DNA of 64,000 bases from an uncultured bacterium. GTDB taxonomy: Bacteria > Zhuqueibacterota > QNDG01 > DTFT01. The stretch is from contig CAVTNR010000003.1 of NCBI GenBank assembly GCA_963736115.1, forward strand, positions 98,798 to 162,797. Direction: 5' to 3'. Under the pieces are notes generated by a model that was not told the origin of the DNA, did no database searches, and worked only from the letters and a program-made list of their open reading frames with translations. Shown one piece after another: positions 1-21,832 of this stretch (within the stretch, counting starts at the first letter, position 1; each line of letters begins with the position of its first letter). The position numbers and the translations under genes were made by a program.

Positions 1-1107
1 CATCCAGAGCCCGGACTTCGGGAGTGCCTTCAAAGCGCCGGAGAATGTTCCGATCAGAACGAACAGAACCCCGAGCCCCCAGGCAAAGGAGAAGAGAAGG
101 CCGAAACCGAGAAGTAGGGAACCCTTTTTCGCCACCCAGGCCAGGATGACGACCAGCAGGGGGCTGATGCAGGGCGACACGATGAGGCCCGAGACAATAC
201 CCGTGAGAAATGCGCCGAGAAATCCTCTTTTCTTTTTTCCGCGCAGTTTGGACGCGACAGCCGGCGGCATCTGGATGGTGAAGGCGCCCAGCATGGAAAG
301 GCCCATGGCCAGGAAGAGCGCGGCGATGAACACGGTCACGGCCGGATGGCTCATGAGGGAGCCGAACAGGGATCCGGTCTTGGCCGCGGCCATGCCGAGA
401 ACGGAAAACGTGATGGATATACCGAGCACGTAAAAGAGGGAGAGTACGAATCCACTCCACCTGCGGCCGCCCGTGGCCTGGGCGCCGATCACGGCCATGG
501 TGATCGGGATCATGGGATACACGCAGGGCGTGAATGAAGTCAGCAGTCCGCCGAGAAACACGAGCAGAAGGGCTGTCCACGATCCCTTTTCCAGCGCGTC
601 CGCCACGCGGCCCGTGATATCCTTTTTTTCACCATCCGGACCTGTGGGCGCAGACTCTCCAGGCTCAGCAACAGTCAGTGTGGTCTCGGCCCGTATGTCT
701 TCTGGAGGAAAGCAGACACCCTGGGTTTCCCCGCACTGCTGAATCGTGACAATAGCCGCGATCGTCCGTTCGCCCGCGGACGCGTCCGGGAGAACCTGCA
801 GGGGGATCTCTACGCGGACGAGTCCCTTGTACACTTTGCCGAACTTGTCCGGCTCGCCTTCTGGATATTTCGGAGCGGAGAAAACTACGCCCGGAACCGA
901 ATCCGGGACAACTGAAAAAAGGCCGTCTCCGGGGGCAGTGACATGGTATCCCTCGGAGAGTGACACCTGCACAATTGCCTTCCCGTTTCCGGGCGCTGGA
1001 ATGGAGGACGGTTCAACGGTCATTCGGACGACGTACGCGCCCTGGCTGAATACGGTGGCGGTCCAGAAAAGCGGGAGAAGGATGAATCGGATCAATCGGG
1101 AAGTCAT
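1..1107 (-). CDS. dsbD: Thiol:disulfide interchange protein DsbD (partial, runs off the window start)
   Basis: Not in the ORF track. Manual translation from ATG at 1107 gives MTSRLIRFILLPLFW..., an N-domain with 'QQCGETQGVCFPP', and transmembrane motifs 'GGLLTSFTPCVYPMIPIT', 'IVSPCISPLL' and 'LPKSGLWM'. The frame is open to position 1. Confidence 0.9.
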   Translation of the reverse strand, partial: MTSRLIRFILLPLFWTATVFSQGAYVVRMTVEPSSIPAPGNGKAIVQVSLSEGYHVTAPGDGLFSVVPDSVPGVVFSAPKYPEGEPDKFGKVYKGLVRVEIPLQVLPDASAGERTIAAIVTIQQCGETQGVCFPPEDIRAETTLTVAEPGESAPTGPDGEKKDITGRVADALEKGSWTALLLVFLGGLLTSFTPCVYPMIPITMAVIGAQATGGRRWSGFVLSLFYVLGISITFSVLGMAAAKTGSLFGSLMSHPAVTVFIAALFLAMGLSMLGAFTIQMPPAVASKLRGKKKRGFLGAFLTGIVSGLIVSPCISPLLVVILAWVAKKGSLLLGFGLLFSFAWGLGVLFVLIGTFSGALKALPKSGLWM

Positions 1108-1175
1108 AGGGACCTCTTTGAATTATTAGATTGCCACGCCCCGTTCCGGAAGCCGGAACGGGGCTCGCAATGACA

Positions 1176-8565: not shown

Positions 8566-9225
8566 TTATTCGGTGGATTCTTTCCGAGACAGGAGCTCCC
8601 GCTGTTTCCGGTTGCCCAGGTCCAGCCTGCGCAGAAGCTTCCAGGCGCCGATGAGGCCCAGACGGACGAAACCGAAGCGTTCGGTGTTCAATTCCTTGGC
8701 AATCTGGGAAGGACCCCACGAGGGGTGCTCACGCACGATTTGGAGAACCTTGTCGTCAATGCCTTCGGGAACGACTTCGGATTCCTGGGCCTTGCGCATC
8801 ACGGAATCCGCGGTCTGAAGCGCCTGATCCGAAGCTTCCTGCTCCATGGCAAGATTGACTTCCCGGCCGCCGAGGTCGAAATCGCGGATGCTTTCCTCGA
8901 CTGTGTCGTAGGCCTTGAGGATATAATGAAATTCGAGAAGTTCGAAGACTTCGTAGACGTCGGGAATCATGCGGGCCAGCTTGAGATCGCCGCCCCTTTC
9001 CCGGATGCCCTTGATTTCGCTGATGAATATGCCCCAGCCCGCGCTGGAAATATAGTCCACATTGCCCAGGTCGATAATGATGTGGACCACGCCCGTTTTC
9101 AGGAGAGAATCGAGGGCCCTTTCCAGTTCCGCGGAAGTGGTGGTGTCAATGTACCCGCCCACACGGATGACCGACACTTCGCCGAGCGTCCCCACTTTTT
9201 CCACCGATACCTGTATGCCTTCCAT
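8566..9225 (-). CDS. STAS anti-sigma-factor antagonist (RsbV/SpoIIAA-like) with C-terminal HTH-like extension
   Basis: 'GGYIDTTTS..IIDLGNVDYISSAGWG' with the conserved phospho-Ser; extra C-terminal 'IVREHPSWGPSQIAKEL'. Confidence 0.88.
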   Translation of the reverse strand: MEGIQVSVEKVGTLGEVSVIRVGGYIDTTTSAELERALDSLLKTGVVHIIIDLGNVDYISSAGWGIFISEIKGIRERGGDLKLARMIPDVYEVFELLEFHYILKAYDTVEESIRDFDLGGREVNLAMEQEASDQALQTADSVMRKAQESEVVPEGIDDKVLQIVREHPSWGPSQIAKELNTERFGFVRLGLIGAWKLLRRLDLGNRKQRELLSRKESTE

Positions 9226-9269
9226 CGGACTGCCCCCAAAAGAGATCGATAAATATATATAACATTTGA

Positions 9270-9298
9270 AATTTAATAGAAATCGGGGTCATTGTCAA
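9270..9298 (-). promoter_or_regulatory. Sigma70-type promoter upstream of the STAS gene
   Basis: Minus strand TTGACA-N17-TAAATT. Confidence 0.65.
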
Positions 9299-9337
9299 CC
9301 CTTTTTACCGGGGGCCGAGACCGGCCGGAAAAGGATT

Positions 9338-12300
9338 TCAGACCGCCTGGCTCCGGATGAGTTTCTGCATGCGTTTGATCCGCTCCAGGATGTCCGACCG
9401 TTGGGGATTCCGCTTCAGAATTTCCCCCCACTGCCAGACGGCCCGCTTGTATTCCCCCCGGTTGGCGGAGATGACGCCGAGGTTCTCCAGAACGTTTAGG
9501 TTCTCCGGATTGAGCAGACGCACCCGCTCATAGGATTCAATCGCCTTTTCCAGCTGGCCGAGCCTGTACCAGGCGTCTCCGAGGCTCTGGTACGCTTCCC
9601 AGGAATCCGGCTTTTCGTCCAGGATGCGTTTGAACTCTTCAATGGCCTTGGCGTACAGGCCCTGTCTGTAGAACCATTTGCCCGAATCCATATGGCGGCG
9701 GCTGTTCATTTCACGGAGCATGGCCGTGATGCGGCTTTCGTCGCGCGATCCCCTGGCGGAAAGGGTCGTGTCGCTGTCAAAAGGCGAGGCGTCGATGCGT
9801 TCGAAGAGACCGCCGTCAAAGGCCTCGGCGGATTCCTCCGCGAATCCAGCGAATTCCGCGTCGAAGAGCTCTCCGCTGACGGATTCGGCGATCCGATCCT
9901 CGGCATCCGCCTGGTTCTCCACGGCTGAATCGGCGGTGACGGCCGGTGCGCCGTCTTCAGGGGATTTCCCGGCCGGCACGGCGACCGCTTCGGTTCCGGA
10001 ACCGGGACTTTCTTCCAGCCAGTCGAAAAGACCGCCGAGAAGACCGTCGTCCGTTTCCGGGGACGTTGTCCCGGGTTCGGCGGCTGCGGCTGATCCGCCG
10101 GCCGCGACGGACTCCGCCGGTCCGAGGGGCGCAACGCTTTCCGCGCCCGCTCCGGACGGGGACCCCGCTGCGGCGGCGCCCGTCTCCTGCCGGAGCAGGC
10201 TTTCCTCCGGGGCGGATGCGTCCGCTCCGGAAAGCGGCGGATGCGCGACTTCCTCCGGTTCCTTTTTGATCTGCGAAGCGCGTATGCTGATCGTGGGCGC
10301 GTCATCCAGCCGGCGCGGCCGGAGAAGCGGCGGCCTCTCGCGCCGTTTTCCGGTGTCGAGAATAATCTGTCCGTCCAACGTGAGGAACGGCGTGCCCGGC
10401 GGCTTGGTCCGCTTGCCCTTTTCGCCCCGCTCCGCAAACACCTGACGGCGGTCCCGCGTGTTGAGCCGGCTCTTCACCAGCTCGTCGTAGATCCGTTTCT
10501 CGTCGAGTACGGTGAGCCCGTAGCTTTCCGTTTTCAGCTCCTCGGCGATGCGCTTGGGGCCGAAATCCGGATGTTTCTTGATGATGTCGTGTATCTTGAC
10601 CTTGTCCTCGATGGCGATATGGTTTTCCTCGACGTCGGAGCGCACGGTCAGCTCGCGCAGGCCGTCATCGCCCATCTTGTCCCACCGCCGCCGGTACTTG
10701 TAATAGGTCGAGGTCGAGACGCCCACTTTCCGGCAGGCGTCGCGCGCGCTCATGCCCTCCTCCGTGACCAGCCGGATGAGTTTCGAGCGGAGGTTGAAGA
10801 GAACGTCTTCGGCCTTCATGTTCTCCTGAATGGCCACCAGCGTGATGTCGTCGCTCTGGGCTTCTCCGCCGGTGAATTCCTTGATTTCCTCCCGGATGCG
10901 GTCCACGAGCGGATCGACCTGCATTTGGCCGCCTTTCCGGATGACGGACAGGAAGCGCTCCTCCCCGAATTTATCACGCTGGGCGTTCATCGCCTCGGTC
11001 ACCCCGTCGGTGTAGGCGATGAGCACGTCGCCCTCCTTCAGGTGGATGGTGTCCGATTCGATTGATTTGCGGAACAGGGTCTTGTCCGGCAGGTTGAGCC
11101 CGATGGGGAAGCCCCGCGGGTTCAGGTAGAAGCTCTTGTTGGTCTGGGCGCGGTACAGGATCATGGGATTGTGCCCCGCGCTCGCGTAATTGATGGTGCG
11201 GTTGTGCGAGTCGAGAATCACGTAGAACACGGTCACGAACATGCCGCGCTTCATGTCGTTGATCACGAAGTCATTGACGCGGGCGAGCACGTCGGCGGCG
11301 TTCTTGTTGCCGCGGGCCTCGGTGCGGAGCGCCGTCCGTATCATGGTCATGATCAGAGAGCCGGGAACGCCCTTTCCGGAGACGTCCGCCACGACGATGC
11401 CCAGCGTGTCCTTGTCCACCTCGACGAAGTCGAAATAGTCCCCGCCCACCTCCCGCGCGGCTTCATAGTACGAGGCGATTTCATAACCCTCGATCTCCGG
11501 GAAGGAGGAGGGAAGCAGCGTGTGCTGGATTTCCTGGGCGACCTGCATTTCCTTCTGCAGGCGTTCCTGCTCCGCCAGGTTTACCTGGGATTTCCGGAAT
11601 TTTTCAGTGATTTCATTGAAGGCGTGGGCGATTTCGCCGATCTCGTCCGACTGGTCGAATTCGACCTCGTCCTGTATTTCACCGTGGCCGGCGGCGCTGA
11701 TCCACCGGGCCAGCCGCCGCAGGGGATTCGTGATGAGAAAGACCAGCGCGAAAATGCCGGCGGCGCCGACCAGCCAGATAATGAACAGCATCCGGAGTCC
11801 GTCCAGCAAGGCGGTACGGATCTTGTGGTCGGTGACAGCCTTGTCGAACTGGAGCCGGACGCTTCCGACCGGTATTCGCATCAGCGGCGGGACGACGGCC
11901 TCCTCGATCTCGTACGCGGTCCGGCCGTCGTCCGTCCGCGTGCGCGTGACGGACGTCGAAAGCCGCGCCTCGACCGGTCCGGGCCGGTGCGGCTCGAGTA
12001 TCCGTTCGGGCGTCACCGATCCCTGAACGATGCCGGTGGAATCGATGATGAGCGCCTCAAGCAGCCAGGGCGCATTAACCCGCTGGAATTCGGCTGCGAT
12101 CCGGGCGGTCTCGATGGTTTCGTCCCGGACCAGCGACTCCACGCACTGGTGCGCCAGCGTCCGGGCAAGAGTGCCGCCGAGGGCCAGGTCGGACCGGAGG
12201 ATGCGGGAGCGCTGGTTTGCGTTCGACACGAACCACACAGCCACGGCCAGCAGGGTCCACAGGATGCCGGCGTAGACGCCGTACTGCAATTTCATCGGAA

Positions 12301-12760
12301 GACCCATGCCCGGCAGCCGGAGCTGGCGCCGCGGAAAGTGAGGGAGGTTCTTGACGAGCTTGAGCTCGTTGCCCTCCACGGTCTTCCGGTAATCCACGCC
12401 GTCGACCACGCGCCGGATGATGAAAATGCCCAGCCCGCCCTTTTTGCCGATGTCCACGTACCGCTGAAGGTCCGGGTCCCGGACCTGGCGGAGATCGAAG
12501 GTGTGTCCCTGGTCGATCAGGGAGACGGTCACATCCCGGTTGCGGATGATCATGCGGAGCGTGACGAATCCGTCCCAGTCCCGGTAGGCGTGCCGGATGA
12601 TGTTCGTCCCGCCCTCGTCGATCGCCAGCTTGAAGGAGTTGAGAATCCTCTCCGGAACGCCGTACTTGCGGCCGACATGTGTGACGAAATTCCGCATTTC
12701 CCCGAGGTATTTGACGTCCGCGGGGACCTTGCATTCTTCTTTGATGACTTTTCGGAACAT
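9338..12760 (-). CDS. Membrane multidomain partner-switching protein: RsbW-type HATPase, 2 TM with periplasmic domain, HAMP, SpoIIE/RsbU PP2C phosphatase, HTH, acidic linker, TPR
   Basis: Kinase boxes 'LAIDEGGTNIIRHAY', 'IDQG', 'GGLGIFII'; HAMP 'PLRRL..DEIGEIAHAFN'; PP2C 'VGGDYFD', 'VADVSGKG', 'SAGH', 'YTDGVTEA', 'SDDITL'; C-terminal TPR pattern. Confidence 0.88.
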   Translation of the reverse strand: MFRKVIKEECKVPADVKYLGEMRNFVTHVGRKYGVPERILNSFKLAIDEGGTNIIRHAYRDWDGFVTLRMIIRNRDVTVSLIDQGHTFDLRQVRDPDLQRYVDIGKKGGLGIFIIRRVVDGVDYRKTVEGNELKLVKNLPHFPRRQLRLPGMGLPMKLQYGVYAGILWTLLAVAVWFVSNANQRSRILRSDLALGGTLARTLAHQCVESLVRDETIETARIAAEFQRVNAPWLLEALIIDSTGIVQGSVTPERILEPHRPGPVEARLSTSVTRTRTDDGRTAYEIEEAVVPPLMRIPVGSVRLQFDKAVTDHKIRTALLDGLRMLFIIWLVGAAGIFALVFLITNPLRRLARWISAAGHGEIQDEVEFDQSDEIGEIAHAFNEITEKFRKSQVNLAEQERLQKEMQVAQEIQHTLLPSSFPEIEGYEIASYYEAAREVGGDYFDFVEVDKDTLGIVVADVSGKGVPGSLIMTMIRTALRTEARGNKNAADVLARVNDFVINDMKRGMFVTVFYVILDSHNRTINYASAGHNPMILYRAQTNKSFYLNPRGFPIGLNLPDKTLFRKSIESDTIHLKEGDVLIAYTDGVTEAMNAQRDKFGEERFLSVIRKGGQMQVDPLVDRIREEIKEFTGGEAQSDDITLVAIQENMKAEDVLFNLRSKLIRLVTEEGMSARDACRKVGVSTSTYYKYRRRWDKMGDDGLRELTVRSDVEENHIAIEDKVKIHDIIKKHPDFGPKRIAEELKTESYGLTVLDEKRIYDELVKSRLNTRDRRQVFAERGEKGKRTKPPGTPFLTLDGQIILDTGKRRERPPLLRPRRLDDAPTISIRASQIKKEPEEVAHPPLSGADASAPEESLLRQETGAAAAGSPSGAGAESVAPLGPAESVAAGGSAAAAEPGTTSPETDDGLLGGLFDWLEESPGSGTEAVAVPAGKSPEDGAPAVTADSAVENQADAEDRIAESVSGELFDAEFAGFAEESAEAFDGGLFERIDASPFDSDTTLSARGSRDESRITAMLREMNSRRHMDSGKWFYRQGLYAKAIEEFKRILDEKPDSWEAYQSLGDAWYRLGQLEKAIESYERVRLLNPENLNVLENLGVISANRGEYKRAVWQWGEILKRNPQRSDILERIKRMQKLIRSQAV

Positions 12761-12778: not shown

Positions 12779-14755
12779 TTACTTGTTGTTCTGGAAGGTC
12801 TGGAGGCGGGCGCGCGCGCCCTGGATGGCCTCGATGATTTTCACGTTGTTGGGCTCGATGACCAGAGCCTCTTCCCAGATCCGCAGGGCGCCCGCATAAT
12901 CGCCGTCCTGGTAGGCGCGCAGGCCCTGGGAGTACCGGTCCTTTGCGTCGCGCCGCATCTCCCTGGGCGCGCCCTGGGACCGGGCGAGCGCGTTCCGGTA
13001 CAGCTCGCGCGCCTTCTGGTTCGCGGGTTCGAGTTCCGTGGCGCGCCGGAGGAAGTCGGCCGCGCCCGCGTAATCCTGCTTCTCGAAACGTTCGACCCCG
13101 GCCTGATAGGCGTTGAGGAAGCCGAATTTCTCGTCCAGGTTCTTCATCTCTTCGGACACCAGGGCGTTCAAACGGGGGGAATCGCCGGCCGTTTCGCGGG
13201 CCTGGTTCAGCACCTGGTAGGCTTCGGCGGCTTTTTCCTCCCGCACCAGCTGGCGGGCGCGGCCGATGCGGCGCTGGACCTCGCTCTCCTGGGCGCCGGC
13301 TGTGCGGCTGATGTAGCTCCGGATCTGTTCATTTTCCGGATCCCTCTCGAGCGCCTGGTTCCAGCGCCCGATGGCCTTCGAGTAGGCGCCCTTGTCGAGG
13401 AACGCCAGCCCTTCCTGGAAGCACTGACTGACGAAGGCGAGGTCTTTCTGGCGGGACTCGTTCTCCCGCGTTTCCTGCAGCAGCTGGTCTTCGCGCGCCA
13501 ACTGGGAGGCGGTTTCGAGCCGGTTGGTCTCCTCGAGCAGGCGTTTGGCTTCCGCGTGGCCGGGGTCGTCCCTCAGGACGGAGCCGAATTCGAGCCGCGC
13601 GTTGATGTAATCCGCGGACGCCAGGTGGCGTTTGCCCGCCGCCAGCGCGTCGGTGACGCGCTTACCGAGCGCCTCCCCCATCTCCTGTTCGACCCGGCGC
13701 CGCGTCTCCGCTTGGCGACGGACTTCGATGAGCCGCCTCTGTTCCGGAATGGATTTGCCGAGGAACAGGATGAGCGAAAAACGGTGGCTGCGCGGAAAGA
13801 ACGACGGATCACCGAGACGGCCGGTGGCATAGTCGATCTGGAAGAACCGGAGCGACAGTCCCGCGCCGAACGTCGGTTCGCCGTCGTCGAATCCCGCGCG
13901 CAGAAACAGGGCGTTCGCGATCGCGTACTCGGCCCCGGCGTGGATCCGGGTTTTCCGGTTCCGGCCCTGTTCGGCATCCGCCAGAATGAGAAAACGGTCC
14001 ATTCCGCCGCGCAAGAAAAGTGTTTTCGCGATTCCCGCGCGCAGTGTCGAGGGCAGGGTTTCGTATTCGCCCCCCAGCCGGAGCCGGGCGGGCAGCGCGT
14101 TGGACATTGAGGCGCCGAGATAGACATTGTGGAGGGGTGAACCTTCCCACCGGATGCGGGTGTGGACGCCGGCGTCCATTCCGAATCCCGTCGCGGACAC
14201 GTTCCCCATGACCTGCCGGTGGGTCACGAAATTGGTGCCGATGGAAATGCCGCGGAAGAGCGTCATGCCGTACCCGAGCGTCAGTTTTCCCTGCCAGTAG
14301 CCGATTTCCCCCATATCCACGGGGACCGTTCCGGCTGCGGCGCCGATCTCCGCGATCCGGCGGATTCCTTCTACGCCGATGCGGGACACGCCGATCCCGA
14401 AAGTGCCGGCGGAAAGCGTCGGATGGATGTAATGGACGGCCTGATACTGGACATCCTCGAAAAGTTCGGTGTGCGACAGAAGCAGACCACGCTGCTGCAC
14501 GACGACCATGCCCGCGGGATTCCAGAGGGGGGCGGACGGGTCCTGCGGGAACGCGACGGCCGCGTTCCCCAAACCCAGAGCCCGGGCATCCGCGCCGATG
14601 CGGAACGGATCCTCGATCCCCGCCCCGCCGTCACCGGCTGACAGACTCCCGGCGCAGGCCGCAAAGCAGACCATCCGGGCGATTCCAAGCCGGGTCCGCC
14701 GGCCGACCCCTGCGGGCCCGGTGACGATTCCCCTGTGGCGATTTGGTTTTCTCAT
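12779..14755 (-). CDS. PorV/PorQ (UPF0164)-like beta-barrel protein fused to C-terminal TPR repeats
   Basis: 'GADARALGLGNAAVA..WNPAGM' PorV-family N-motif; barrel strands ending 'SHRFSLILFLG'; about 300 aa of TPR-like helices ('AIGRWNQALERDPEN', 'IWEEALVIEPNN'). Confidence 0.8.
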   Translation of the reverse strand: MRKPNRHRGIVTGPAGVGRRTRLGIARMVCFAACAGSLSAGDGGAGIEDPFRIGADARALGLGNAAVAFPQDPSAPLWNPAGMVVVQQRGLLLSHTELFEDVQYQAVHYIHPTLSAGTFGIGVSRIGVEGIRRIAEIGAAAGTVPVDMGEIGYWQGKLTLGYGMTLFRGISIGTNFVTHRQVMGNVSATGFGMDAGVHTRIRWEGSPLHNVYLGASMSNALPARLRLGGEYETLPSTLRAGIAKTLFLRGGMDRFLILADAEQGRNRKTRIHAGAEYAIANALFLRAGFDDGEPTFGAGLSLRFFQIDYATGRLGDPSFFPRSHRFSLILFLGKSIPEQRRLIEVRRQAETRRRVEQEMGEALGKRVTDALAAGKRHLASADYINARLEFGSVLRDDPGHAEAKRLLEETNRLETASQLAREDQLLQETRENESRQKDLAFVSQCFQEGLAFLDKGAYSKAIGRWNQALERDPENEQIRSYISRTAGAQESEVQRRIGRARQLVREEKAAEAYQVLNQARETAGDSPRLNALVSEEMKNLDEKFGFLNAYQAGVERFEKQDYAGAADFLRRATELEPANQKARELYRNALARSQGAPREMRRDAKDRYSQGLRAYQDGDYAGALRIWEEALVIEPNNVKIIEAIQGARARLQTFQNNK

Positions 14756-17700
14756 CTATTTCATGACCGCAATTTTGGTTTTCCGGATTTGTCCGTCGGC
14801 CGGTTTCATGAAAAGGAAATACACCCCGTTCAGGACGGCTCGCGACCGGTCGTTCCGGCCGTCCCACAGCAGAGTGTGCAGTCCGGCCGAGGCGCGGTCG
14901 TCCGAGGCGTCGAAAGAAACGGACCAGACCGGTTCGCCCGTGAGCGTGAAAAGGCGGAAGGAGACAGTCGTTCTTTTTTCCAGATAGTAATGAATGGCCG
15001 TGGGGCCGTCCGACGGACTGAATGGATTCGGGCTGTTCCACAGGGCCAGCTCCGTTTCCGGCTCGAATATCTTTTTCGGGTCCGAGCGCAGGGATGTCCA
15101 GTCCTCTCCGGCGGGGGTCTTGACCGCGACGCTGTTGCCGGAGTTGGGTTCCCGGGCGTCAACGAAATCCCCGCTCGGGATGTTGAGCTGGAAGTATCCG
15201 GTTTCAGGCGCGTCGGAAATGCGGCCGAGCACGGCGATGGACACGCTTTCGCCCACGGCAATGCTCGGACGTTTGCTCAGGGACAGAAGGATCGGATTCT
15301 CGCTGATCACCGATGTGGACCCGAAAATGTCCGTGCTATCGGCGTTTGAAACCGCGGTCAGCCTGGAGATCACCGAAGCCGGGGGAATCGGATCGCCGAA
15401 CCGGTCTTCGAACTGGAATCTCAAACCTTCGATCGCGATGCGGCCGCTGCCTTCCATGCCGCGGTTGGTCGCGGTGACCACCAGCAGCTTGACCCCGTCC
15501 TGGCCCGGCATGATGGTGCTGAGACTCCAGGCGGGCAGGGGATTGGCTTCAATCGAGAGCCAGGCGCCGGCCATGCTCACGGCCACGGCGTCATTGGGGC
15601 GGCTCACATAAGCCGGGCGGCCCGTGTTCTCGTCCGCCGGTATGACGGAGAGCCGGAAACGGATGGTCACCGCCTCGACCGACTGCCGGGACGGCGCCTT
15701 GACGGTCCATGCGGCAGTTCCCCCCGCAACGGCGCGCGTAAGCGGATCGAGCGTCGTGTATCCTTCGGGCAGGGTCTCCAGGGTCACGGCGGTTAAGCCC
15801 GTGGTGTCGGCCTCGCCGATATTTTCGAGCCGGGTGGTGATCACGAATTCCTGACCGACCGCGACGGTCCCGGTCTGAGCGACATCGGCCGGCGCGGTGA
15901 TGGCGGCGCTCATGGAGAGGTCGGCGCGGCGGACCGTGGCGATGGAGAAGGCCGCCCAGAAATCGGGAACGGGCACGTCCTGCTGAAGCGAATCCATGCC
16001 CTGCACCCGGACCCGTATGTCCGCTTTCGGCGACGCGGCCGGGGGCGCCTCGACCCGCCAGGACAGTGACCAGGACGTGAGGTTTTTCACGATAGCGTCC
16101 GAGGTGGTGTATCCGGCCGGAAGCTGCAGGGTCGCGGTGATGTCCCGTGCGTTGGAATGAAATATCTGCGTGGTCACGATAAAGGACTGGCTCGCGGATA
16201 CGATTCCGTCCGAGGCGCCGGATGGTTCCGTGACCGCCAGAAGCGCCGAGAGATTGCTGGGCACGGTGATCACGCGGATGCGCGCCTGACTCTGCTCGAC
16301 ATCCGCGGTCGCGCCGGCATTGAAGTCGTTCGGAATCCGGAACAGTTCAGCGGCTACCCATTCGGTGTCCGGCGCGGAGACCGGCGACCGGACGCTCCAT
16401 TCCGCCGGGAATCCCGGCGCGATGCCGGCCGTGTCGCTTTCGGATATTCTTTCGAACCGGTCCGCCAGCACCAGGCGGACGCCCGCGATGCCGTCCGTCC
16501 GTCCGGAGCCGAAATTCATGAGTTCGGCCCGTACGGTGAAAGTCTGGCCGGCGGACACGCGGCCGTCCGGCGTGCTCAGGCCGAGCGAGAGGGAGAGCCG
16601 GACCGGCGTCTGCACCGTCACCTGGGCCGTGGAGTCCAGAGCCGCGCCCACGGGCACGGCCTGGCGGGGCGACCCGATGAATGCCTGAAGGATATCGGCG
16701 CGGAATGTTTCGGCCGCGTTTTCAGCAGCCGGCGCCTTCACGGCGAAGACGGCCGTGTCCCACTGTGCGGGCGTCAGCCGGCTGATGGAAACCGGGGAGG
16801 CCTCGATCGCGGAACCGCCGTCCGTTGTCAGGCCGACGCGGATGTCCTCGACGTTCAGGCCGAGTCCGTTTTCCAGGATCACCAGCACCTCGAAATCCTG
16901 CCCCGTATTGACCGTCGCGTTGCCCGCGTCGTCCGCGGCCGCGGAACGGACGCGGGTGGAGATGATGCGGAAAGACTGGTCGGACCGTACGAACACCGAA
17001 GTTTCCTCTCCGGCGTTCAGGACCGCGCGCGAGTTCCGATCCCGGCCGGTCACCGCCGCCTCTACGCCCGCGATGCCGCCGAGGCTTCCGGTGGAGGTGA
17101 CGGTATAGACCAGGGCGTCGGTCCTTCCGCCGGCCAGGATGAGGCCTCCCTGCGAGAGCGCGGCCGGCGGCGTGACGCTGTAATCCGACTGTTTCAGGCC
17201 GTTGATGCGGAATGTCAGATCCGAGGCCTTCGGCGGGTCGAACTGAATCGGCGCCTGCCCCTGGTTCCGTACCGCCACCTCAACCGTCCAGGGCTCCTTC
17301 TGACCGCCGATGAGTCTGTCCGAAGAGGCGGCGACCCTGGATATGCGCAGGATTGCCGGATTCTGGATGACCACGACGGACGTCGCCGTGACCTCGGGCA
17401 CCAGATCCTTGGTGTTGTCCCTGAAACCGTCCGCATAGAGGGTGAAGGTCTCCCCCGTGCTCGGCGATGCGGCGGCCTGGAAGCTGAAATCCACCCAGAC
17501 CAGCCCGCCGCCGGGCAGCCAGTCCACGGTTTGCACGGATGCGGATGTGAACATCGACAGGCCGTCGGTGTTCATGATGAGCTGGAGGTTGCGGAGGCCG
17601 TCCCCGCCGGTGTTCTGCAGGTATACCCGGAGCGTGTCCTCGGCGTAGACATTGACATAGGGGCGGTTCGGTGCCAGGTTGTCGATGCGGAGAATGCTCA

Positions 17701-20700
17701 GGCTGGCCGGCGTTTCCATGAGAATGGAGGCTTTGACGCCGTAGGTCGTGTCGGATTTGCACGTCCGGCCGGTGTTGATTTCCCTTCCGGTCACCAGGGA
17801 CGTGATCTGACAGATTCCGGTAGGGTTCGATGCGGAACGTTCGACGATGTAGCGGAGGCTGTCCGACGCGCCGCCCGGCAGGATCCAGCCGCCCCGGCCG
17901 AGTTCCTGCAGGCCCGACAGATCCCATCCGGATCCCGCGGAAAAGAGGAGAAAGGTGACCGAACGGCTCGTGTCGATCCGGACGGCGCTTCCTCCGGCAT
18001 TGGTCAGCCGGACCGAAACGGTCCAGGCGATGTCCTGACCCAGCGTGACCTCGGGCTGTGAGACGCGGATCGCGTCGATGCGCAGGCGGGCGGAATCCTG
18101 GACCGCGATGCCGGTGAAACCCTGATCGCTGACCACGCCCCCGGTGCCGCCGTCGGTGAAGAACGCAACAGCCTCGACCGTGACGTCGCCCGGGGACCGG
18201 CCGGTGCGGTCCACCCGGACGGAGAGCGTATCCTCGCCGTTCCCGGCCAGAACCGCGGTTCCGCTGCGGCGGAGGACGGCCGGAAGCACGAGCTGAAAGT
18301 CATTCTGGCGCACGCCGGCGATCCGGAACCGCACCCACAGGCTGTCGAACCGGGCGCTGCTGCTGGCCAGGTTGCGGACGGCCACGTTCAGGGTCCAGTC
18401 CTGCGTCTGACCCGCGGTCACTTCCGCGGCTGAAGCGGTACATGCGGTGATGCGGATGCCCGGGGGCGCATTGACGTCGAAGACGTTGGACGCGCCGGTT
18501 TCCGAACCGCCCGTCCGGACCACGCTGATGCGGTTGCCGGCCCGCGGTAAACCGATGGTGACGCCGCCGGACCACTGGCCCGCGGTAAAGGACCCGCTGC
18601 GGACCGGGCTGATGGAGCCGCTCAGGTCGGAAATGTCCGCGGTTCCGGTGAACGAGGTGGCCTGGCTGCCGAAACGGTCCGCTGCGATCACGATGACGGT
18701 GAAGGGCACCTTGGCGACCTGACTGCCGACCGTGGCGATCAAGAAATGATCGACGGGCCCCGGAAGCACATTGAAGAAGTTGGAGATGCCCGAATGTCCG
18801 GCGCCGTCCGAGGCCGTCACGGTTACGTCCTGGCCCGCGCGCAGAATCATGACGGATTCCGTGCGGACGCCTGCGACGAAGGCGCCGCTGACGGCCGGTG
18901 AAATCGTAGCCGCGCCGTCGGCAAGCGCGACGGTTCCAGTGAAGCCGGTGGCCGTGTTGCCGTACGCGTCGAGCGCGGTGACCGTGACGGGAAAGGCGAT
19001 GCCCGCGGCCTTGGGGCTTCCGATCAGCCCGATCGTAAAGGAGGCCACGCCCGCGGGCCTGACCGTGAATTCATTGGATGTGCCGCTCTTGCCGCCGCCG
19101 GTCACGGTCAGCGAGTTGCCCGTGTAGCTGCGGGTGATGGTCACGCTGCCGTTCCACAGGCCGGACGCGAATGTGATCGACGCGGGCGCGCCGGTTCCGG
19201 TTTCGTCGGCCAGGGCCGCCGTGCCGGCGTACGAGGTGACGGGATTGCCGTTGGAGTCGACCGCGCGGATGACCACGGCGAACGCGACGCCCGCGGTGCG
19301 GTTGTCCGGCACCGGATCGATGACGAAATGATCCACGGTGCTCGCGATCACGGCAAACGGATTGGAGAGGCCGGTCTGGACTCCGCCGGTCCGAGTGAAG
19401 GTCAGCCGGTCCGACGTCTGGGTCTGCGCAATGGTCAGATTGCCGGTCCACACGCCGTTGGTGAAAGCGCCGCTGACCGTGGGCGATACGGTTCCGGCGC
19501 CGGAATGAGTCACGGAAACCGTGTTCCCCGCTCCGCTGAAGGAGGTCACGGTGTTGTTGTTCGCGTCCTGCGCGGTCACCGTGACGCTGAAGGGCATGCC
19601 GGCCGCAGGATCGGCGATGGTTCCCACGGCGAAATGGTCCAGCGAGCCGTGGGTCACGTTGAAATAATTGGAGACGCCCGTGTGCGAGCCGGCGTCCGCG
19701 GCCGTGATGCGCACGTCGTTGCGGGCCTGGGTGATGGTCAGGGTCTGGGTCCGGACGCCCGCGGCGAACGCGCCGGTAACGGAGGGCGAAACTGAAACCG
19801 ATCCGCCGTTCAGGTTCACGGTCGCCGTGAACCCGGTTGCGGTGTTGCCGTAAGCGTCCAGGGCGGTGAAGGTCACGGAAAAACCGGTGCCTGCCGTCCT
19901 CGGGCTGGGGATGTCGGACAGCCTGAATGAGGCCACCGCGGCCGGGACGACCGTGAAGGTTCCGGATGTGCCGCTCTTGCCGGCTCCGGTCACGGTGAGA
20001 AAATCGCCGGTGAGGGATTTCGTGATGGTGACCGCGCCGGTCCAGATGCCGGACGCGAACGTGACCTGCTGGGGCGTGATCGTTCCGGACTCGTCCTTGA
20101 GATTGACCGTGCCGTTGAAAGCGGTCACGGTGTTCCCGCTCGCGTCCACGGCCCGCACGGTCACCGAGAACGGAGCCCCGGCCGTCTGGGAGGGAGAGAC
20201 GGAAGAAAAAACGAAGTGATCCACGGCGCTGGCCGTGATGTTGAACGGATTCGACGTGGCCGCGTGGCCCGAACCGTCGTCCGCCATGAGATAGAGGCCG
20301 GACTGCGTCTGGGAAATGGTCACCGGGCCGGTCCAGGAGCCGCTGTAGAAATTGCCGCTCTGGGCCGGAGTCAGGACGCCCGAACCGGTGTAACTCAGGT
20401 TGACGCGGCGCCCGAGTCCGGTGAACGCGGTGACGATATTTTCAAAAGCGTCGAACGCGGTGATGGTGACCGTGAAAGGCATACCGGCCGCTCCGTCCGC
20501 GACCGGCGAAAAGCCGAAATGATCGAGGCCGGCCGCGTCCACGTTGAAATATCCGGATAGACCGGTGCGGCCCGAACCGGCGGCCGTGACCTGAATGTCC
20601 TGGCCGGTGGTCAGGATGGAGACGTTGCCGGACCACGCTCCGGCCGTGAATGCCGGCGTGACCGCGGTGCCGGTGGTCTGGATTTCGAGGGAAGCTGTTT

Positions 20701-21613
20701 TTTCGGAAAGTGTGACGGTTCCGATGAAATCGGTTTTCGCGTTTCCGTACGTGTCTTTCGCCGTGAGCGTCAGACCGAACCAGGCGCCCGCGGTCTGGGG
20801 GCTGGTGATGGAGTTGAATTCGAAGCGGTCGAGGACGGTCGGGTCCACCCGGAAATTTGAAGTGGTGCCGCTTTTCCCCGATGCCCGGGCCGTGATGTTG
20901 TCCGCGGCCGTTGTTTTGAAGACCTGGACATTGCCGCTCCAGGTGCCGGAGGTGAAGGCCGTGGTCTGCAGGGGGGAGAGAGTGCCGGTGAGATCCGAGA
21001 AGTCCGCGGTCGAGACAAAGGACGTGACTGTGTTATTGTTTGCGTCCTGGGCCGTGACCGTGACGGTGAATGCGTTGCCCGCGGTCTGGGATGCGCCGGG
21101 TCCGGTCACGGCGAAATGGTCCAGCGGTCCGGGCGTGACCGTGAAGGCGGTGAAGGATCCGGAATCCAGAATGATGTCCGCGGCGTCCGTGGTCTGCACG
21201 GTGACGGTGTAGGACGACGACACCGAGGGCCCGTTCGTGATATTCGCGATCTGGACCGTTTCCGTCTGGCCCGAGGCCTGCGTCGTTCCGCCGGAACGGG
21301 CGATGGTCACGGTGCTCCCGGAAGCGGATTCGATCGTCAACGATCCATCCATGGTGGACGATGAGGCGATGACCGCGGTGGACACGCTGAATCCGCCCGG
21401 ATAGGTGACCCGGATTTTACCGTCCGCGGGTATGGCGGTAGACGTGGTAAAAGTCACCGTATGGATGGCCGCGGCGCCGGCCGCGGAATTCGAAGCCGTC
21501 ACCGATACGGATACGAGCTGGGCCTGGGCGGAAACGGCGAAGAAAAGCATCGACAGGAGAAGCCGTCCCGCGGAAAAACGGAAACGCAGAATATTCGGGC
21601 ACCGGTATTTCAC
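14756..21613 (-). CDS. Giant (2285 aa) secreted/surface protein of tandem Ig-like repeats with C-terminal FlgD-Ig/T9SS-like sorting domain
   Basis: Signal peptide ('SAQAQ'); nine ~100-aa repeats 'LDHF..AG.PF.VTVTA.D..GN'; about eight 'V..GQ...V...N.G' domains; C-terminus 'NSPNPFSP..FTLTGEPV..WDGRN..NGVYF..KIAVMK'. Confidence 0.85.
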   Translation of the reverse strand: MKYRCPNILRFRFSAGRLLLSMLFFAVSAQAQLVSVSVTASNSAAGAAAIHTVTFTTSTAIPADGKIRVTYPGGFSVSTAVIASSSTMDGSLTIESASGSTVTIARSGGTTQASGQTETVQIANITNGPSVSSSYTVTVQTTDAADIILDSGSFTAFTVTPGPLDHFAVTGPGASQTAGNAFTVTVTAQDANNNTVTSFVSTADFSDLTGTLSPLQTTAFTSGTWSGNVQVFKTTAADNITARASGKSGTTSNFRVDPTVLDRFEFNSITSPQTAGAWFGLTLTAKDTYGNAKTDFIGTVTLSEKTASLEIQTTGTAVTPAFTAGAWSGNVSILTTGQDIQVTAAGSGRTGLSGYFNVDAAGLDHFGFSPVADGAAGMPFTVTITAFDAFENIVTAFTGLGRRVNLSYTGSGVLTPAQSGNFYSGSWTGPVTISQTQSGLYLMADDGSGHAATSNPFNITASAVDHFVFSSVSPSQTAGAPFSVTVRAVDASGNTVTAFNGTVNLKDESGTITPQQVTFASGIWTGAVTITKSLTGDFLTVTGAGKSGTSGTFTVVPAAVASFRLSDIPSPRTAGTGFSVTFTALDAYGNTATGFTATVNLNGGSVSVSPSVTGAFAAGVRTQTLTITQARNDVRITAADAGSHTGVSNYFNVTHGSLDHFAVGTIADPAAGMPFSVTVTAQDANNNTVTSFSGAGNTVSVTHSGAGTVSPTVSGAFTNGVWTGNLTIAQTQTSDRLTFTRTGGVQTGLSNPFAVIASTVDHFVIDPVPDNRTAGVAFAVVIRAVDSNGNPVTSYAGTAALADETGTGAPASITFASGLWNGSVTITRSYTGNSLTVTGGGKSGTSNEFTVRPAGVASFTIGLIGSPKAAGIAFPVTVTALDAYGNTATGFTGTVALADGAATISPAVSGAFVAGVRTESVMILRAGQDVTVTASDGAGHSGISNFFNVLPGPVDHFLIATVGSQVAKVPFTVIVIAADRFGSQATSFTGTADISDLSGSISPVRSGSFTAGQWSGGVTIGLPRAGNRISVVRTGGSETGASNVFDVNAPPGIRITACTASAAEVTAGQTQDWTLNVAVRNLASSSARFDSLWVRFRIAGVRQNDFQLVLPAVLRRSGTAVLAGNGEDTLSVRVDRTGRSPGDVTVEAVAFFTDGGTGGVVSDQGFTGIAVQDSARLRIDAIRVSQPEVTLGQDIAWTVSVRLTNAGGSAVRIDTSRSVTFLLFSAGSGWDLSGLQELGRGGWILPGGASDSLRYIVERSASNPTGICQITSLVTGREINTGRTCKSDTTYGVKASILMETPASLSILRIDNLAPNRPYVNVYAEDTLRVYLQNTGGDGLRNLQLIMNTDGLSMFTSASVQTVDWLPGGGLVWVDFSFQAAASPSTGETFTLYADGFRDNTKDLVPEVTATSVVVIQNPAILRISRVAASSDRLIGGQKEPWTVEVAVRNQGQAPIQFDPPKASDLTFRINGLKQSDYSVTPPAALSQGGLILAGGRTDALVYTVTSTGSLGGIAGVEAAVTGRDRNSRAVLNAGEETSVFVRSDQSFRIISTRVRSAAADDAGNATVNTGQDFEVLVILENGLGLNVEDIRVGLTTDGGSAIEASPVSISRLTPAQWDTAVFAVKAPAAENAAETFRADILQAFIGSPRQAVPVGAALDSTAQVTVQTPVRLSLSLGLSTPDGRVSAGQTFTVRAELMNFGSGRTDGIAGVRLVLADRFERISESDTAGIAPGFPAEWSVRSPVSAPDTEWVAAELFRIPNDFNAGATADVEQSQARIRVITVPSNLSALLAVTEPSGASDGIVSASQSFIVTTQIFHSNARDITATLQLPAGYTTSDAIVKNLTSWSLSWRVEAPPAASPKADIRVRVQGMDSLQQDVPVPDFWAAFSIATVRRADLSMSAAITAPADVAQTGTVAVGQEFVITTRLENIGEADTTGLTAVTLETLPEGYTTLDPLTRAVAGGTAAWTVKAPSRQSVEAVTIRFRLSVIPADENTGRPAYVSRPNDAVAVSMAGAWLSIEANPLPAWSLSTIMPGQDGVKLLVVTATNRGMEGSGRIAIEGLRFQFEDRFGDPIPPASVISRLTAVSNADSTDIFGSTSVISENPILLSLSKRPSIAVGESVSIAVLGRISDAPETGYFQLNIPSGDFVDAREPNSGNSVAVKTPAGEDWTSLRSDPKKIFEPETELALWNSPNPFSPSDGPTAIHYYLEKRTTVSFRLFTLTGEPVWSVSFDASDDRASAGLHTLLWDGRNDRSRAVLNGVYFLFMKPADGQIRKTKIAVMK

Positions 21614-21794
21614 GTGGGGAAAACCGTCCTTTCAGAAGCGAGATTCCATTCCAAAAGGTTCATATTTGCAAAGAGCATACCAGCCCCGGAATTGTTTGTA
21701 AACTCTTTAATAACAAATGTGGTTTGTGGTCGGTTTCCGGCCGATTCCCGGTCCGTGCGCGTTTTTCCATCAGTCTCTAACCTTTTGATTCGTC

Positions 21795-21823
21795 TTGATT
21801 TTTCTTTCTTTTTTTGTTATATT
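21795..21823 (+). promoter_or_regulatory. Sigma70-type promoter
   Basis: TTGATT-N17-TATATT with TG extended -10, ending 9 nt before ATG 21833. Confidence 0.55.
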
Positions 21824-21832
21824 TATCCGTTT

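Follow-up and report, generated by a model that had tools for sequence, protein, structure and literature searches.

The two-gene locus

We analysed a stretch of 64,000 nucleotides from an uncultured bacterium (the window), in which two genes on the minus strand encode a bifunctional sensor enzyme, P0001, and a STAS-HTH protein, P0002 (table 1). Both frames are intact. P0001 consists, in this order, of an RsbW-like kinase, a membrane segment, a sensor, a second membrane segment, HAMP, PP2C, an HTH module, a disordered region and TPR repeats. In P0002, an acidic linker joins the STAS domain to a basic HTH tail.

Table 1. Features of the locus. Positions are those of the window and residues those of the encoded protein.
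Feature	Position	Strand	Residues	Basis
P0002 gene, STAS-HTH protein, 219 aa	8566..9225	minus		ORF, translation
Basic C-terminal HTH tail of P0002	8575..8763	minus	155-217	BLASTP, profile-profile, AF2
Acidic variable linker of P0002	8764..8874	minus	118-154	charge, pLDDT, dN/dS
STAS (anti-sigma-factor-antagonist) domain	8893..9183	minus	15-111	Pfam STAS E 5.7e-19
Presumed phospho-acceptor in invariant DYISSAGWG motif	9043..9045	minus	Ser61	alignment
Promoter-like site, sigma-70 type (TTGACA, 17 nt, TAAATT)	9270..9298	minus		10/12 matches
P0001 gene, bifunctional sensor enzyme, 1140 aa	9338..12760	minus		ORF, translation, domain matches
C-terminal TPR repeats	9386..9718	minus	about 1015-1125	TPR_2 E 3.9e-13 and related models
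Low-complexity, poorly conserved linker	9731..10360	minus	801-1010	column identity 0.16-0.31
Basic stretch, invariant K-P-P-G-T and 'PFLTLDG' block	10361..10417	minus	782-800	module alignment
Module HTH 2 (HTH_32/HTH_21 type and fourth helix)	10418..10624	minus	713-781	hhalign, BLASTP, AF2
Module HTH 1 (HTH_23/HTH_28 type)	10646..10789	minus	658-705	HTH_23, IS481 profile start
PP2C (SpoIIE-type) serine phosphatase	10826..11413	minus	450-645	PF07228 E 1.5e-51
HAMP domain	11603..11737	minus	342-386	Pfam E 3.7e-8
Membrane segment 2 (hydrophobic)	11732..11797	minus	about 322-343	Kyte-Doolittle maximum 2.83
Membrane segment 1 (hydrophobic)	12221..12283	minus	160-180	Kyte-Doolittle window maximum 1.87
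RsbW/SpoIIAB-like serine kinase (HATPase_c_2)	12350..12727	minus	12-137	Pfam, RsbW models
Conserved upstream neighbour, outer-membrane barrel of the PorV/PorQ family with fused TPR repeats	12779..14755	minus		NF033709

The kinase matches HATPase_c_2 (PF13581) with E 9.1e-24 and 84.3 bits for a Pfam cut-off of 27.4; RsbW models match it with E 7e-15, and SpoIIAB models also match. Kinase and PP2C are the best-conserved parts of P0001, with column identities over 61 sequences of 0.64-0.89 (mean) and 0.8-0.97, respectively. The variable stretch between the two membrane segments, where identity in the same sequences is about 0.3, is presumed to be an outside sensor, and sCache_3_2 occupies its position in three distant homologues. 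We found no match to a receiver (Response_reg) domain in P0001, which has the two hydrophobic segments and HAMP instead. In the AF2 model, the first HTH of the module comprises helices 672-679 and 683-696, and the second, with a pLDDT of about 92, helices 717-729, 735-742, 754-763 and 769-781. The second HTH has a column identity of 0.70-0.75 (61 sequences) and is about neutral (charge -0.5). The basic stretch that follows has a column identity of 0.75 and includes K137, P139, G140 and T141 of the module alignment, all invariant; module positions 119-141 carry a mean charge of +6.1.

The STAS domain of P0002 scores 63.9 bits with TIGR00377 (cut-off 53.45), and the SpoIIAA and TM1442 chains match it with E of about 2e-9 (SpoIIAA 2.6e-9). 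S60 and S61 are invariant in 25/25 sequences. The serine of SpoIIAA (Ala in chains 1TID/1TIL) aligns with S61, the presumed phospho-acceptor. The linker has a mean charge of -7.0 (25 sequences) and a pLDDT of 46-52. It is followed by a tail with a mean charge of +3.6 (helix 3, +2.6) after the acidic STAS core and linker; the AF2 model places helices at 157-166, 172-179, 191-200 and 206-217, with a pLDDT of 76-88. Of the partner-switching set of the RsbU/RsbW/RsbV type, the locus has a STAS antagonist with its conserved serine, an HATPase_c_2 kinase and a PP2C phosphatase. Judged by sequence, the two genes encode a partner switch based on serine phosphorylation.

The promoter-like site falls in the 112-nt gap 5' of the STAS gene. 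Among 67 orthologous gaps, 57 contain TTGAC, for the most part 60-80 nt ahead of the start codon, and the STAS gene is predicted to have its own conserved promoter. The pair is neighboured by genes for a PorV-family protein, for aconitase and for isocitrate dehydrogenase. The first of these matches NF033709 with 97.2 bits (cut-off 90) and has a homologue upstream in 61/80 loci; we regard it as context.

A sub-domain common to both partners

A preliminary description of this DNA had reported that enzyme and STAS protein share an IS481-type HTH module. The two segments on which it relied lie where it had placed them: 'EEGMSARDACRKVGVSTSTYYKYRRRWDKMGDDGLRE ... SRLNTRDRR' corresponds to P0001 residues 667-772 (window 10445-10762) and 'KVLQIVREHPSWGPSQIAKELNTERFG ... 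LDLGNRKQR' to P0002 residues 159-209 (window 8599-8751). Their similarity, seen by eye at the time, is significant. BLASTP of the second HTH of P0001 against the tail of P0002 gives 18/55 identities in a gapless alignment (E 3e-10, single comparison), and a profile-profile alignment of 33 orthologous modules with 35 tails (hhalign) spans 69 columns with a probability of 98.7 % and E 2.9e-16. The common region covers P0001 residues about 710-780 and P0002 residues 149-217; a counterpart of the first, HTH_23-type HTH is absent from P0002. Since the tail is homologous to the second HTH only, the partners have one sub-domain in common and not the whole module, and the original claim holds for that part alone.

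The proposed likeness to the N-terminus of IS481/IS3-type transposases was borne out, with IS481 ahead of IS3. Pfam HTH_23 matches the P0001 module over its cut-off (E 3.4e-9). Positions 2-114 of the 284 in the NCBIfam IS481 model NF033577 correspond to P0001 residues 658-770 (E 4.4e-14), with a score of 52.7 bits for a cut-off of 224 and a match that ends at model position 114. This model is matched by 32 of the 33 orthologous modules; IS481 outscores IS3, IS21 and IS630, and is the top transposase family in 32/33. The matches of the P0002 tail are weaker (IS481, E 2.6e-4; HTH_32, E 1.6e-3) and both under curated cut-offs, and among 35 orthologous tails HTH_21 is found in 11 (best 6.8e-7) and HTH_32 in nine. 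The families matched by the tail are HTH_21, HTH_32 and HTH_Tnp_Tc3_2, with neither ArsR nor MarR among them, and all families matched by module or tail are transposase DNA-binding regions. The fold search that had been suggested gave less: Foldseek returned no match at E 1e-3 or better. Weak fold matches (Z of 6.5 or lower, a common level for small helical domains) are all to DNA-binding HTHs or two-part transposase heads (TnsB, MuA, Tc3, IstA and Pax). Both copies have the motif 'SIE.K..I..II...P..G...I..ELNT..YG', which differs from the transposase consensus. Relatives bearing rve (P0234, P0262) are among the matches of the module, and in other organisms the module heads membrane GT2 glycosyltransferases (7/40 sampled relatives).

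As first described, no DDE domain is visible and both frames are uninterrupted: neither P0001 nor P0002 has an rve/DDE match among family matches at E up to 1. The genome encodes no IS481 transposase over the model cut-off, and it has only three NF033577 matches, all under cut-off: P0001, the tail of P0002 and a remnant resembling IS3. The P0001 module is single-copy and vertically conserved. In the phylum of the window, we found a full-length STAS-HTH match in 41/41 genomes and the module inside an open frame of roughly 1000-1300 aa in 38/41; module and STAS gene are on one contig in 31 of these 38. In the Calditrichales-type phylum the module is present in 40/41 genomes, each with a tail-bearing ORF 1-2 kb away. 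The tail is encoded at 79 of 80 public loci, and at 67 of the 80 the gene for the enzyme lies immediately upstream. The dN/dS values, computed against two same-genus orthologues, are 0.02-0.04 for the P0002 tail, 0.10-0.17 for the second HTH of P0001, 0.24-0.44 for its first HTH, and 0.40-0.50 and 0.12-0.13 for the linkers of P0001 and P0002, respectively. Purifying selection acts on both HTH copies, which occur in almost all sampled genomes of the two phyla. Because IS481 is the best-matching family, no DDE domain is present and conservation is deep, the module is best described as a domesticated transposase DNA-binding domain, as had been suggested. We infer that recruitment of the transposase region preceded the copying of its second sub-domain onto the other partner.

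Output of the switch

Partner-switching modules have long been regarded as controllers of sigma factors. We propose, as a reading with an even chance of being correct, that the STAS-HTH protein instead regulates genes directly by binding DNA, gated by serine phosphorylation and controlled by the bifunctional sensor enzyme. An extracytoplasmic signal would lead the sensor enzyme to set the phosphorylation state of Ser61. The STAS-HTH protein would bind DNA, probably as a STAS-mediated dimer, and phosphorylation of Ser61 would switch this binding. As the protein would itself be the DNA-binding output, a sigma factor would not be needed. The two-part HTH of the enzyme would read the same DNA or keep the substrate near, and the likely targets would be cell-surface genes nearby and the promoter of the STAS gene itself.

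Several observations are consistent with this proposal. The catalytic and acceptor parts look intact, given the conserved kinase and PP2C and the invariant S60/S61. The tail is basic and follows an acidic linker and STAS core, and its relatives are transposase DNA-binding families. Both HTH copies are conserved under purifying selection. No sigma-70 gene lies on the contig of the window, the genome encodes a separate small RsbV/RsbW pair, and the STAS gene has a conserved promoter predicted for itself. The reading also gains weight because a published analogue exists, CapK/CapS, as far as the available text describes it (PMC13373217). Other observations argue against it. The tail is a lone three-helix unit, too small for specific binding alone; in the window it scores under the curated Pfam and NCBIfam cut-offs, and its fold matches are weak. 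The presence of the same domain on a membrane-anchored enzyme is left unexplained, the second HTH there is about neutral, and no conserved palindrome or operator was evident in 67 intergenic regions besides the promoter hexamers. Deleting the HTH of CapK had no effect, according to the accessible part of that report (PMC13373217). A variant that we consider doubtful is a membrane-tethered switch acting on DNA, in which the two HTH2 heads recognize a common DNA site or one another and the pair is a master regulator of surface genes. In that case enzyme and substrate would come together on the chromosome, at the controlled genes, via the domesticated IS481 head, and the targets would be the conserved genes next to the pair, for the PorV-like protein and a giant secreted protein, throughout KSB1 and Calditrichota.

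The shared sub-domain could also serve as a matched docking device, an explanation we find possible if rather unlikely. The STAS tail would bind the homologous second HTH of the enzyme, like with like, and hold the substrate at the membrane; this would provide specificity among the several STAS proteins of the genome, the real output being a protein contact of the STAS core. Specificity is an issue because the genome has 7 STAS and 16 HATPase_c_2 matches. One sub-domain on both partners, co-conserved in two phyla, fits this explanation, as do the complementary charges of the basic tail and the neutral-to-acidic second HTH. With the tail profile, the second HTHs of the enzymes (34-57 bits) usually outscore relatives that are free tandem HTHs or fused to GT2 (mostly 15-30 bits, one 42.9). 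In a natural, fully fused form (P0184), the STAS domains covalently joined to the enzyme lack the tail, which fits tethering at least as well as DNA binding. Nevertheless, we know of no precedent for HTH_32/HTH_21 domains pairing together. The mirror-tree partial correlation between second HTH and tail is 0.01 when PP2C and kinase distances are controlled, and a second STAS-HTH paralogue lies far from any such enzyme gene. In addition, the PP2C-STAS interface described in the available part of a preprint sits on the phosphatase domain itself (bioRxiv 10.1101/2024.05.03.592459).

A classical anti-anti-sigma switch, in which the N-terminal kinase also sequesters a sigma factor from another locus, the STAS protein frees it and the HTHs are accessory, seems to us unlikely. 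The kinase does match RsbW/SpoIIAB models, the STAS domain exceeds the anti-sigma-antagonist cut-off and the genome has eight sigma-70-family genes. However, all eight Sigma70_r2 matches are on other contigs than that of the window, no sigma gene was seen among the neighbour proteins scanned in the window, and the strongly conserved HTH parts are left unexplained. A membrane-tethered kinase in one chain with its opposing phosphatase rather resembles SypE, whose STAS partner has a non-sigma target in the available texts (PMC10120452, PMC8256260). It is more improbable still that both HTH2-type heads bind a common partner other than DNA or one another, such as RNA polymerase, the PorV-TPR neighbour or a nucleotide signal. 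The departure of the shared motif from the transposase consensus would fit, and a transcription-factor role is not obvious for the module on GT2 glycosyltransferases, but the relatives by sequence and by fold all bind DNA. We give practically no credence to a chance resemblance, a chimeric assembly or the decaying, functionless remnant of an insertion sequence. The transposase-type matches do fall short of the family cut-offs, since they cover no more than the N-terminal third of the models. Yet the profile-profile similarity, the intact frames and the genome's lack of an over-cut-off IS481 transposase argue against these explanations, and they are refuted by conservation in 38/41 and 40/41 genomes of two phyla with dN/dS far below 1, an analysis foreseen in the preliminary description.

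Significance and comparison with known systems

If the direct DNA output is correct, this form of partner switching, described for mobile immune operons, would also include a vertically inherited core regulator in two phyla that have been little studied, and would gain a sensor facing outward and an enzyme that works the switch in both directions. The transposase-derived DNA-binding head would be a clear example, in bacteria, of a transposase domesticated for signalling, and a sub-domain common to enzyme and substrate would offer a handle on kinase/phosphatase-substrate specificity. A MAG labelled Caldithrix abyssi (L088) carries the pair and this species is cultured, so the idea is testable at the bench.

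Like IS481-family transposases (NF033577), the module has an N-terminal two-part HTH region; unlike them, it lacks rve/DDE, is embedded in a signalling protein and is single-copy. In SypE-type enzymes, which are soluble, a receiver domain lies between the two catalytic domains; the enzyme described here has a two-membrane-segment sensor and HAMP in its place. It resembles SypE/SypA of Vibrio fischeri, HsbR/HsbA and CrsR/CrsA in joining serine kinase and PP2C in one polypeptide (PMC10120452, PMC8256260). In the available parts of these sources, the small SypA-type STAS protein is a downstream, non-sigma output for surface and biofilm traits (PMC10120452, PMC8256260). The STAS proteins of such systems are single-domain and without HTH, whereas P0002 has one; the terms 'helix-turn-helix', 'HTH' and 'DNA-binding' occur 0 times in the accessible text of the review (PMC8256260).

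STAS proteins acting directly on enzymes (All4160, PMC13555669) or on DNA (CapS, PMC13373217) are recent findings, judging from the available portions of both reports. All4160 of Anabaena has STAS fused to an output domain, which STAS phosphorylation switches under the control of a PP2C-type phosphatase and anti-sigma-type kinases; its output is a glycosyltransferase and here it is an HTH (PMC13555669, available part). CapS, which joins a STAS domain to a winged HTH, is a dimeric repressor that controls its own promoter; CapK phosphorylates Ser54 in the STAS dimer interface, upon which the dimer breaks and DNA is released (Chambers et al., EMBO J 2026, PMC13373217, as described in the text available). 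The STAS-HTH profile has 11 PDB sequence matches at E up to 1, none of them a CapS chain, in a PDB set that may lack CapS. Both systems combine an anti-sigma-type GHKL serine kinase with a STAS protein bearing a C-terminal HTH, and in both the kinase protein also bears an HTH (PMC13373217). The differences, within the available text of that report, are as follows. The HTH of CapS is winged, of ArsR/MarR type, and the tail here has its family matches to the transposase types HTH_32/HTH_21. CapK is a soluble, ssDNA-activated HTH-STAS-GHKL protein without phosphatase, in contrast to the membrane sensor with PP2C described here. The HTHs of CapK and CapS are not described there as mutual homologues, whereas the partners here have a homologous sub-domain. 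Finally, CapKS precedes mobile immune operons, and the pair described here consists of core genes of two phyla (PMC13373217).

Architecture of the enzyme and its STAS partner

The genes of the enzyme (P0001) and of the STAS-HTH protein (P0002) are adjacent and both lie on the minus strand (table). Judging from sequence, the kinase and phosphatase domains of the enzyme are intact and conserved. Its HTH region, hereafter the module, comprises a first and a second HTH; besides HTH_23, it has weaker Pfam matches to HTH_Tnp_1, HTH_28, HTH_29 and HTH_32. Hydrophobic segments at residues 160-180 and about 322-343 bracket a weakly conserved stretch, a place taken by an sCache_3_2 sensor domain in three distant homologues. 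We therefore read P0001 as a membrane sensor, the kinase, phosphatase, HTH and TPR parts of which would all be cytoplasmic. Directly after the module comes a block with an invariant K-P-P-G-T, which matches no known family. In an alignment of 61 sequences, this block and the second HTH reach a column conservation of 0.70-0.75, equal to that of the catalytic domains, with values of about 0.3 for the sensor and about 0.2 for the enzyme linker.

In P0002, the STAS domain is followed by an acidic linker and a C-terminal HTH, hereafter the tail; the charge is -9.4 for the acidic STAS core, -7 for the linker and +3.6 for the basic tail. Ser60-Ser61 is invariant in the STAS domain, and Ser61 shares an alignment column with the SpoIIAA serine, a position substituted in chains 1TID and 1TIL.

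Features of the gene pair, its surroundings and related loci (G, genome, with G000 that of the window; C, contig; L, fetched locus)
Feature	Location	Strand	Basis or remark
Enzyme gene (P0001, 1140 residues)	window 9338..12760	minus	ORF and translation
STAS-HTH gene (P0002, 219 residues)	window 8566..9225	minus	ORF and translation
HATPase_c_2	P0001 residues 12-137		Pfam, E 9e-24
HAMP	P0001 residues 342-386		Pfam
SpoIIE/PP2C	P0001 residues 450-645		Pfam, E 1.5e-51
HTH_23	P0001 residues 658-702		Pfam, E 3.4e-9
K-P-P-G-T and 'PFLTLDG' block	window 10361-10417 (P0001 residues 782-800)	minus	
TPR repeats	P0001 residues about 1015-1125		Pfam
STAS	P0002 residues 15-111		E 5.7e-19
Sigma-70-like promoter, TTGACA-17-TAAATT	window 9270-9298	minus	in the 112-nt enzyme-STAS intergenic gap
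PorV/PorQ-family barrel fused to TPR	window 12779-14755	minus	97 bits, above cut-off
2285-aa repeat-rich, secreted-looking protein, conserved upstream neighbour	window 14756-21613	minus	no family match
Patatin-like phospholipase, POTRA and Omp85, 1003 aa	window 21461-24469	plus	divergent, adjoining the giant protein gene
Second STAS-HTH paralogue	G000:C12:395183-395875 (L015:7178-7876)	minus	39 % identity
IS3-type transposase remnant	G000:C12:315259-315666 (L016:4218-4867)	minus	short, broken
RsbV/RsbW-like pair	G000:C22:40433-41234		small STAS of 120 aa
1926-aa enzyme paralogue	L108:190-5967 (G031:C6); G039:C23		

Public annotation names these proteins 'SpoIIE family protein phosphatase', 'tetratricopeptide repeat protein' or 'anti-sigma B factor antagonist', and some JGI names append 'transposase'; the domain matches are thus already visible in databases. 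Our literature searches found no paper describing the KSB1/Calditrichota pair of enzyme and STAS-HTH protein, and nothing on domestication of an IS481 head in signalling proteins.

A predicted DNA-binding head of transposase type and its relatives

The preliminary description had proposed an IS481-type HTH on both proteins, and the peptides it quoted are indeed encoded where it placed them. The likeness holds: positions 2-114 of the 284 in the NCBIfam IS481 model align with P0001 residues 658-770 (E 4.4e-14), and positions 40-112 with P0002 residues 133-208 (E 2.6e-4). With just the DNA-binding third of the model represented, both scores fall far short of the family cut-off. IS481 ranks best among the transposase families for the module, ahead of IS3, IS21 and IS630, and 32 of 33 orthologous modules match its model. 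The 35 orthologous tails match HTH_21 (11 cases), HTH_32 (9) and HTH_Tnp_Tc3_2 (5). Neither protein has an rve or DDE domain in Pfam or NCBIfam, as had been noted by eye; with the catalytic domain absent, the pair is not an IS481 transposase.

The claim that the two partners carry homologous segments stands for one sub-domain and not for the whole module. The segments share 33 % identity over 55 ungapped residues (BLASTP, E 3e-10), and in an hhalign comparison of profiles from 33 modules and 35 tails, module 710-780 aligns with tail 149-217 (probability 98.7 %, E 2.9e-16). Nothing in P0002 corresponds to the first HTH; the partners thus have a single sub-domain in common.

AlphaFold2 gives the module (mean pLDDT 85) two units of three helices each, a linker of lower confidence between them and a fourth helix beyond the second unit. 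The tail is predicted to form the same four helices as this second unit (pLDDT 76-88), preceded by a disordered linker. PDB sequence searches with the module, the module profile and the tail profile returned nothing meaningful, and no Foldseek match to the module reached E 1e-3; the strongest of the weak matches were to DNA-binding heads in two parts, from TnsB, MuA, Pax, IstA and SETMAR. In a wide VIA fold search, the first unit matched DeoR/SorC HTHs, the second Myb/SANT-like and sigma-54 RpoN-like HTHs, and TnsB, Tc3 and IstA spanned both, all at Z 6.5 or less, a level that by the tool's own note indicates a common small helical fold only. These matches fit a two-part DNA-binding head without proving one.

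An exhaustive search with the module, cut at E 1e-3, retrieved 485 cluster representatives; a word-indexed search confined to the tail gave two close relatives, a number set by the index limit. We scanned 40 of the representatives, a non-random set picked by rank and length from the 150 listed. Seventeen were kinase/HAMP/PP2C proteins or fragments thereof, 14 were HTH-only or tandem-HTH proteins, seven carried the module ahead of a GT2 glycosyltransferase and two were rve-bearing transposases. In the GT2 proteins (P0235, P0236, P0243, P0246, P0252, P0256 and P0269; 616-2949 aa), the HTH_23/28 plus HTH_32 module is N-terminal to GT2 and often in tandem; it also occurs in the HTH-only tandem proteins, which lack rve. 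On the second HTH of the enzymes, the tail profile reaches 34-57 bits, against mostly 15-30 bits (one 42.9) on free or GT2-linked relatives; this speaks mildly for one capture with later duplication inside the system.

Two representatives are natural enzyme-STAS fusions with kinase, HAMP, PP2C, HTH module and a 'YISSGGWG'-type STAS: P0184 (1511 aa), which carries three STAS domains without a tail HTH, and P0180, a 436-aa fragment. Fused STAS domains in this group number one to three per protein and lack the tail HTH. Such fusions tie the enzyme to its substrate irrespective of gene order. Some families of the phylum also encode a 1926-aa enzyme paralogue, ordered as kinase, HAMP, PP2C, second HTH only, a long linker and many TPRs.

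Conservation and genomic setting

All 41 genomes of the window's phylum have a full-length match to the STAS-HTH protein, 40 of them at E 8e-65 or better. The module lies within a long open frame in 38 of the 41 (the other three genomes are 78, 80 and 96 % complete) and shares a contig with the STAS gene in 31 of these 38. In the phylum of a Calditrichales chromosome, 40 of 41 sampled genomes have the module, in frames of 840-1200 aa that are shorter where the gene is cut or split, each with a tail-bearing ORF of 230-290 aa 1-2 kb off. By their record titles, the nearest public contigs come from Calditrichota and candidate division KSB1, and among them is a MAG with the label Caldithrix abyssi. 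Among 80 public loci, the tail was seen in 79 STAS ORFs and a PP2C-module ORF lies directly upstream in 67. Nine of the remaining 13 offer less than 3 kb of upstream sequence; the other four (L050, L053, L066 and L101) have about 6 kb and no enzyme gene, which their relatives carry elsewhere in the genome.

The check on selection suggested in the preliminary description bore out conservation of the shared sub-domain: against two same-genus orthologues, dN/dS is 0.02-0.04 for the tail and 0.10-0.17 for the second HTH, while the first HTH stands at 0.24-0.44, the STAS core at 0.02-0.03 and the enzyme linker at 0.4-0.5. Conservation rules out an IS481 remnant. The window's own genome has no true IS481 transposase, and its module copies are confined to P0001, P0002 and a second STAS-HTH paralogue; the sole other match to the IS481 model is an IS3-type remnant. 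This paralogue, alignable end to end with the tail included, is found in most genomes of the phylum. It has no adjoining kinase/phosphatase gene and lies among polysaccharide-export genes (GT5 starch-synthase-like, Poly_export/SLBB and Wzz-GNVR-AAA_31).

A PorV-TPR gene precedes the enzyme gene in 61 of the 80 loci; downstream genes vary, and in the window they encode aconitase and isocitrate dehydrogenase. The C-terminus of the 2285-aa protein looked by eye like that of a type IX secretion cargo, an idea we dropped, Pfam and NCBIfam having given no family match for the full-length protein or for the final 150 residues. TTGAC occurs in 57 of 67 orthologous gaps before the STAS gene (loci L028-L107), mostly 60-80 nt before the start codon; in Calditrichales-type loci the gap is 33-59 nt and has no TTGAC-type promoter. 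An operator search by 7-mer enrichment in the 67 intergenic regions retrieved promoter hexamers only, and a short inverted repeat across the window's -35 element is not kept beyond the genus. The window's contig has no sigma-70 gene. A canonical small STAS and RsbW-like kinase pair lies on another contig, apart from P0001 and P0002.

Proposed output and comparison with known systems

The closest published system is CapK/CapS. In this system (PMC13373217), the STAS protein CapS carries a winged HTH and binds palindromes as a STAS-mediated dimer; phosphorylation by CapK of Ser54, which lies in the dimer interface, releases it from DNA. An HTH is present in CapK too, and its deletion had no effect. 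Given this system and the homology to DNA-binding heads, the most likely reading is that phosphorylation of Ser61 switches DNA binding. An outside signal would lead P0001 to set the phosphorylation state of Ser61 in P0002, and this state would switch DNA binding by the STAS-HTH protein. By the logic of CapS, the STAS dimer would supply the two-fold contact that a single small HTH needs.

A switch of DNA binding does not account for the module on the enzyme itself. The chief rival reading is that the common sub-domain forms a docking pair between enzyme and STAS protein, as suggested by the missing tail HTH in the fused forms and by complementary charges, a basic tail facing a second HTH that is neutral to acidic. 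Docking is somewhat disfavoured by the lack of excess co-variation in a mirror-tree analysis of a 60-locus alignment: controlled for distances of PP2C and kinase, the partial r is 0.01 between tail and second HTH, and 0.48 between tail and first HTH. Both values carry little weight, as related genomes are non-independent and domains that evolve fast tend to correlate; shared fast evolution alone may account for the 0.48.

The layout is common to the pair and CapK/CapS and the logic likely so, whereas HTH type, enzyme architecture and genomic setting differ. P0001 shares with SypE of Vibrio fischeri the idea of a bifunctional enzyme, but lacks the receiver domain of SypE. Apart from a sigma target, the pair has the features that define a partner-switching module. 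Because it has these, lacks those of an IS481 transposase and resembles CapK/CapS and SypE in part, we file it as a putative core partner switch of two phyla, with a transposase-derived HTH on both enzyme and substrate.
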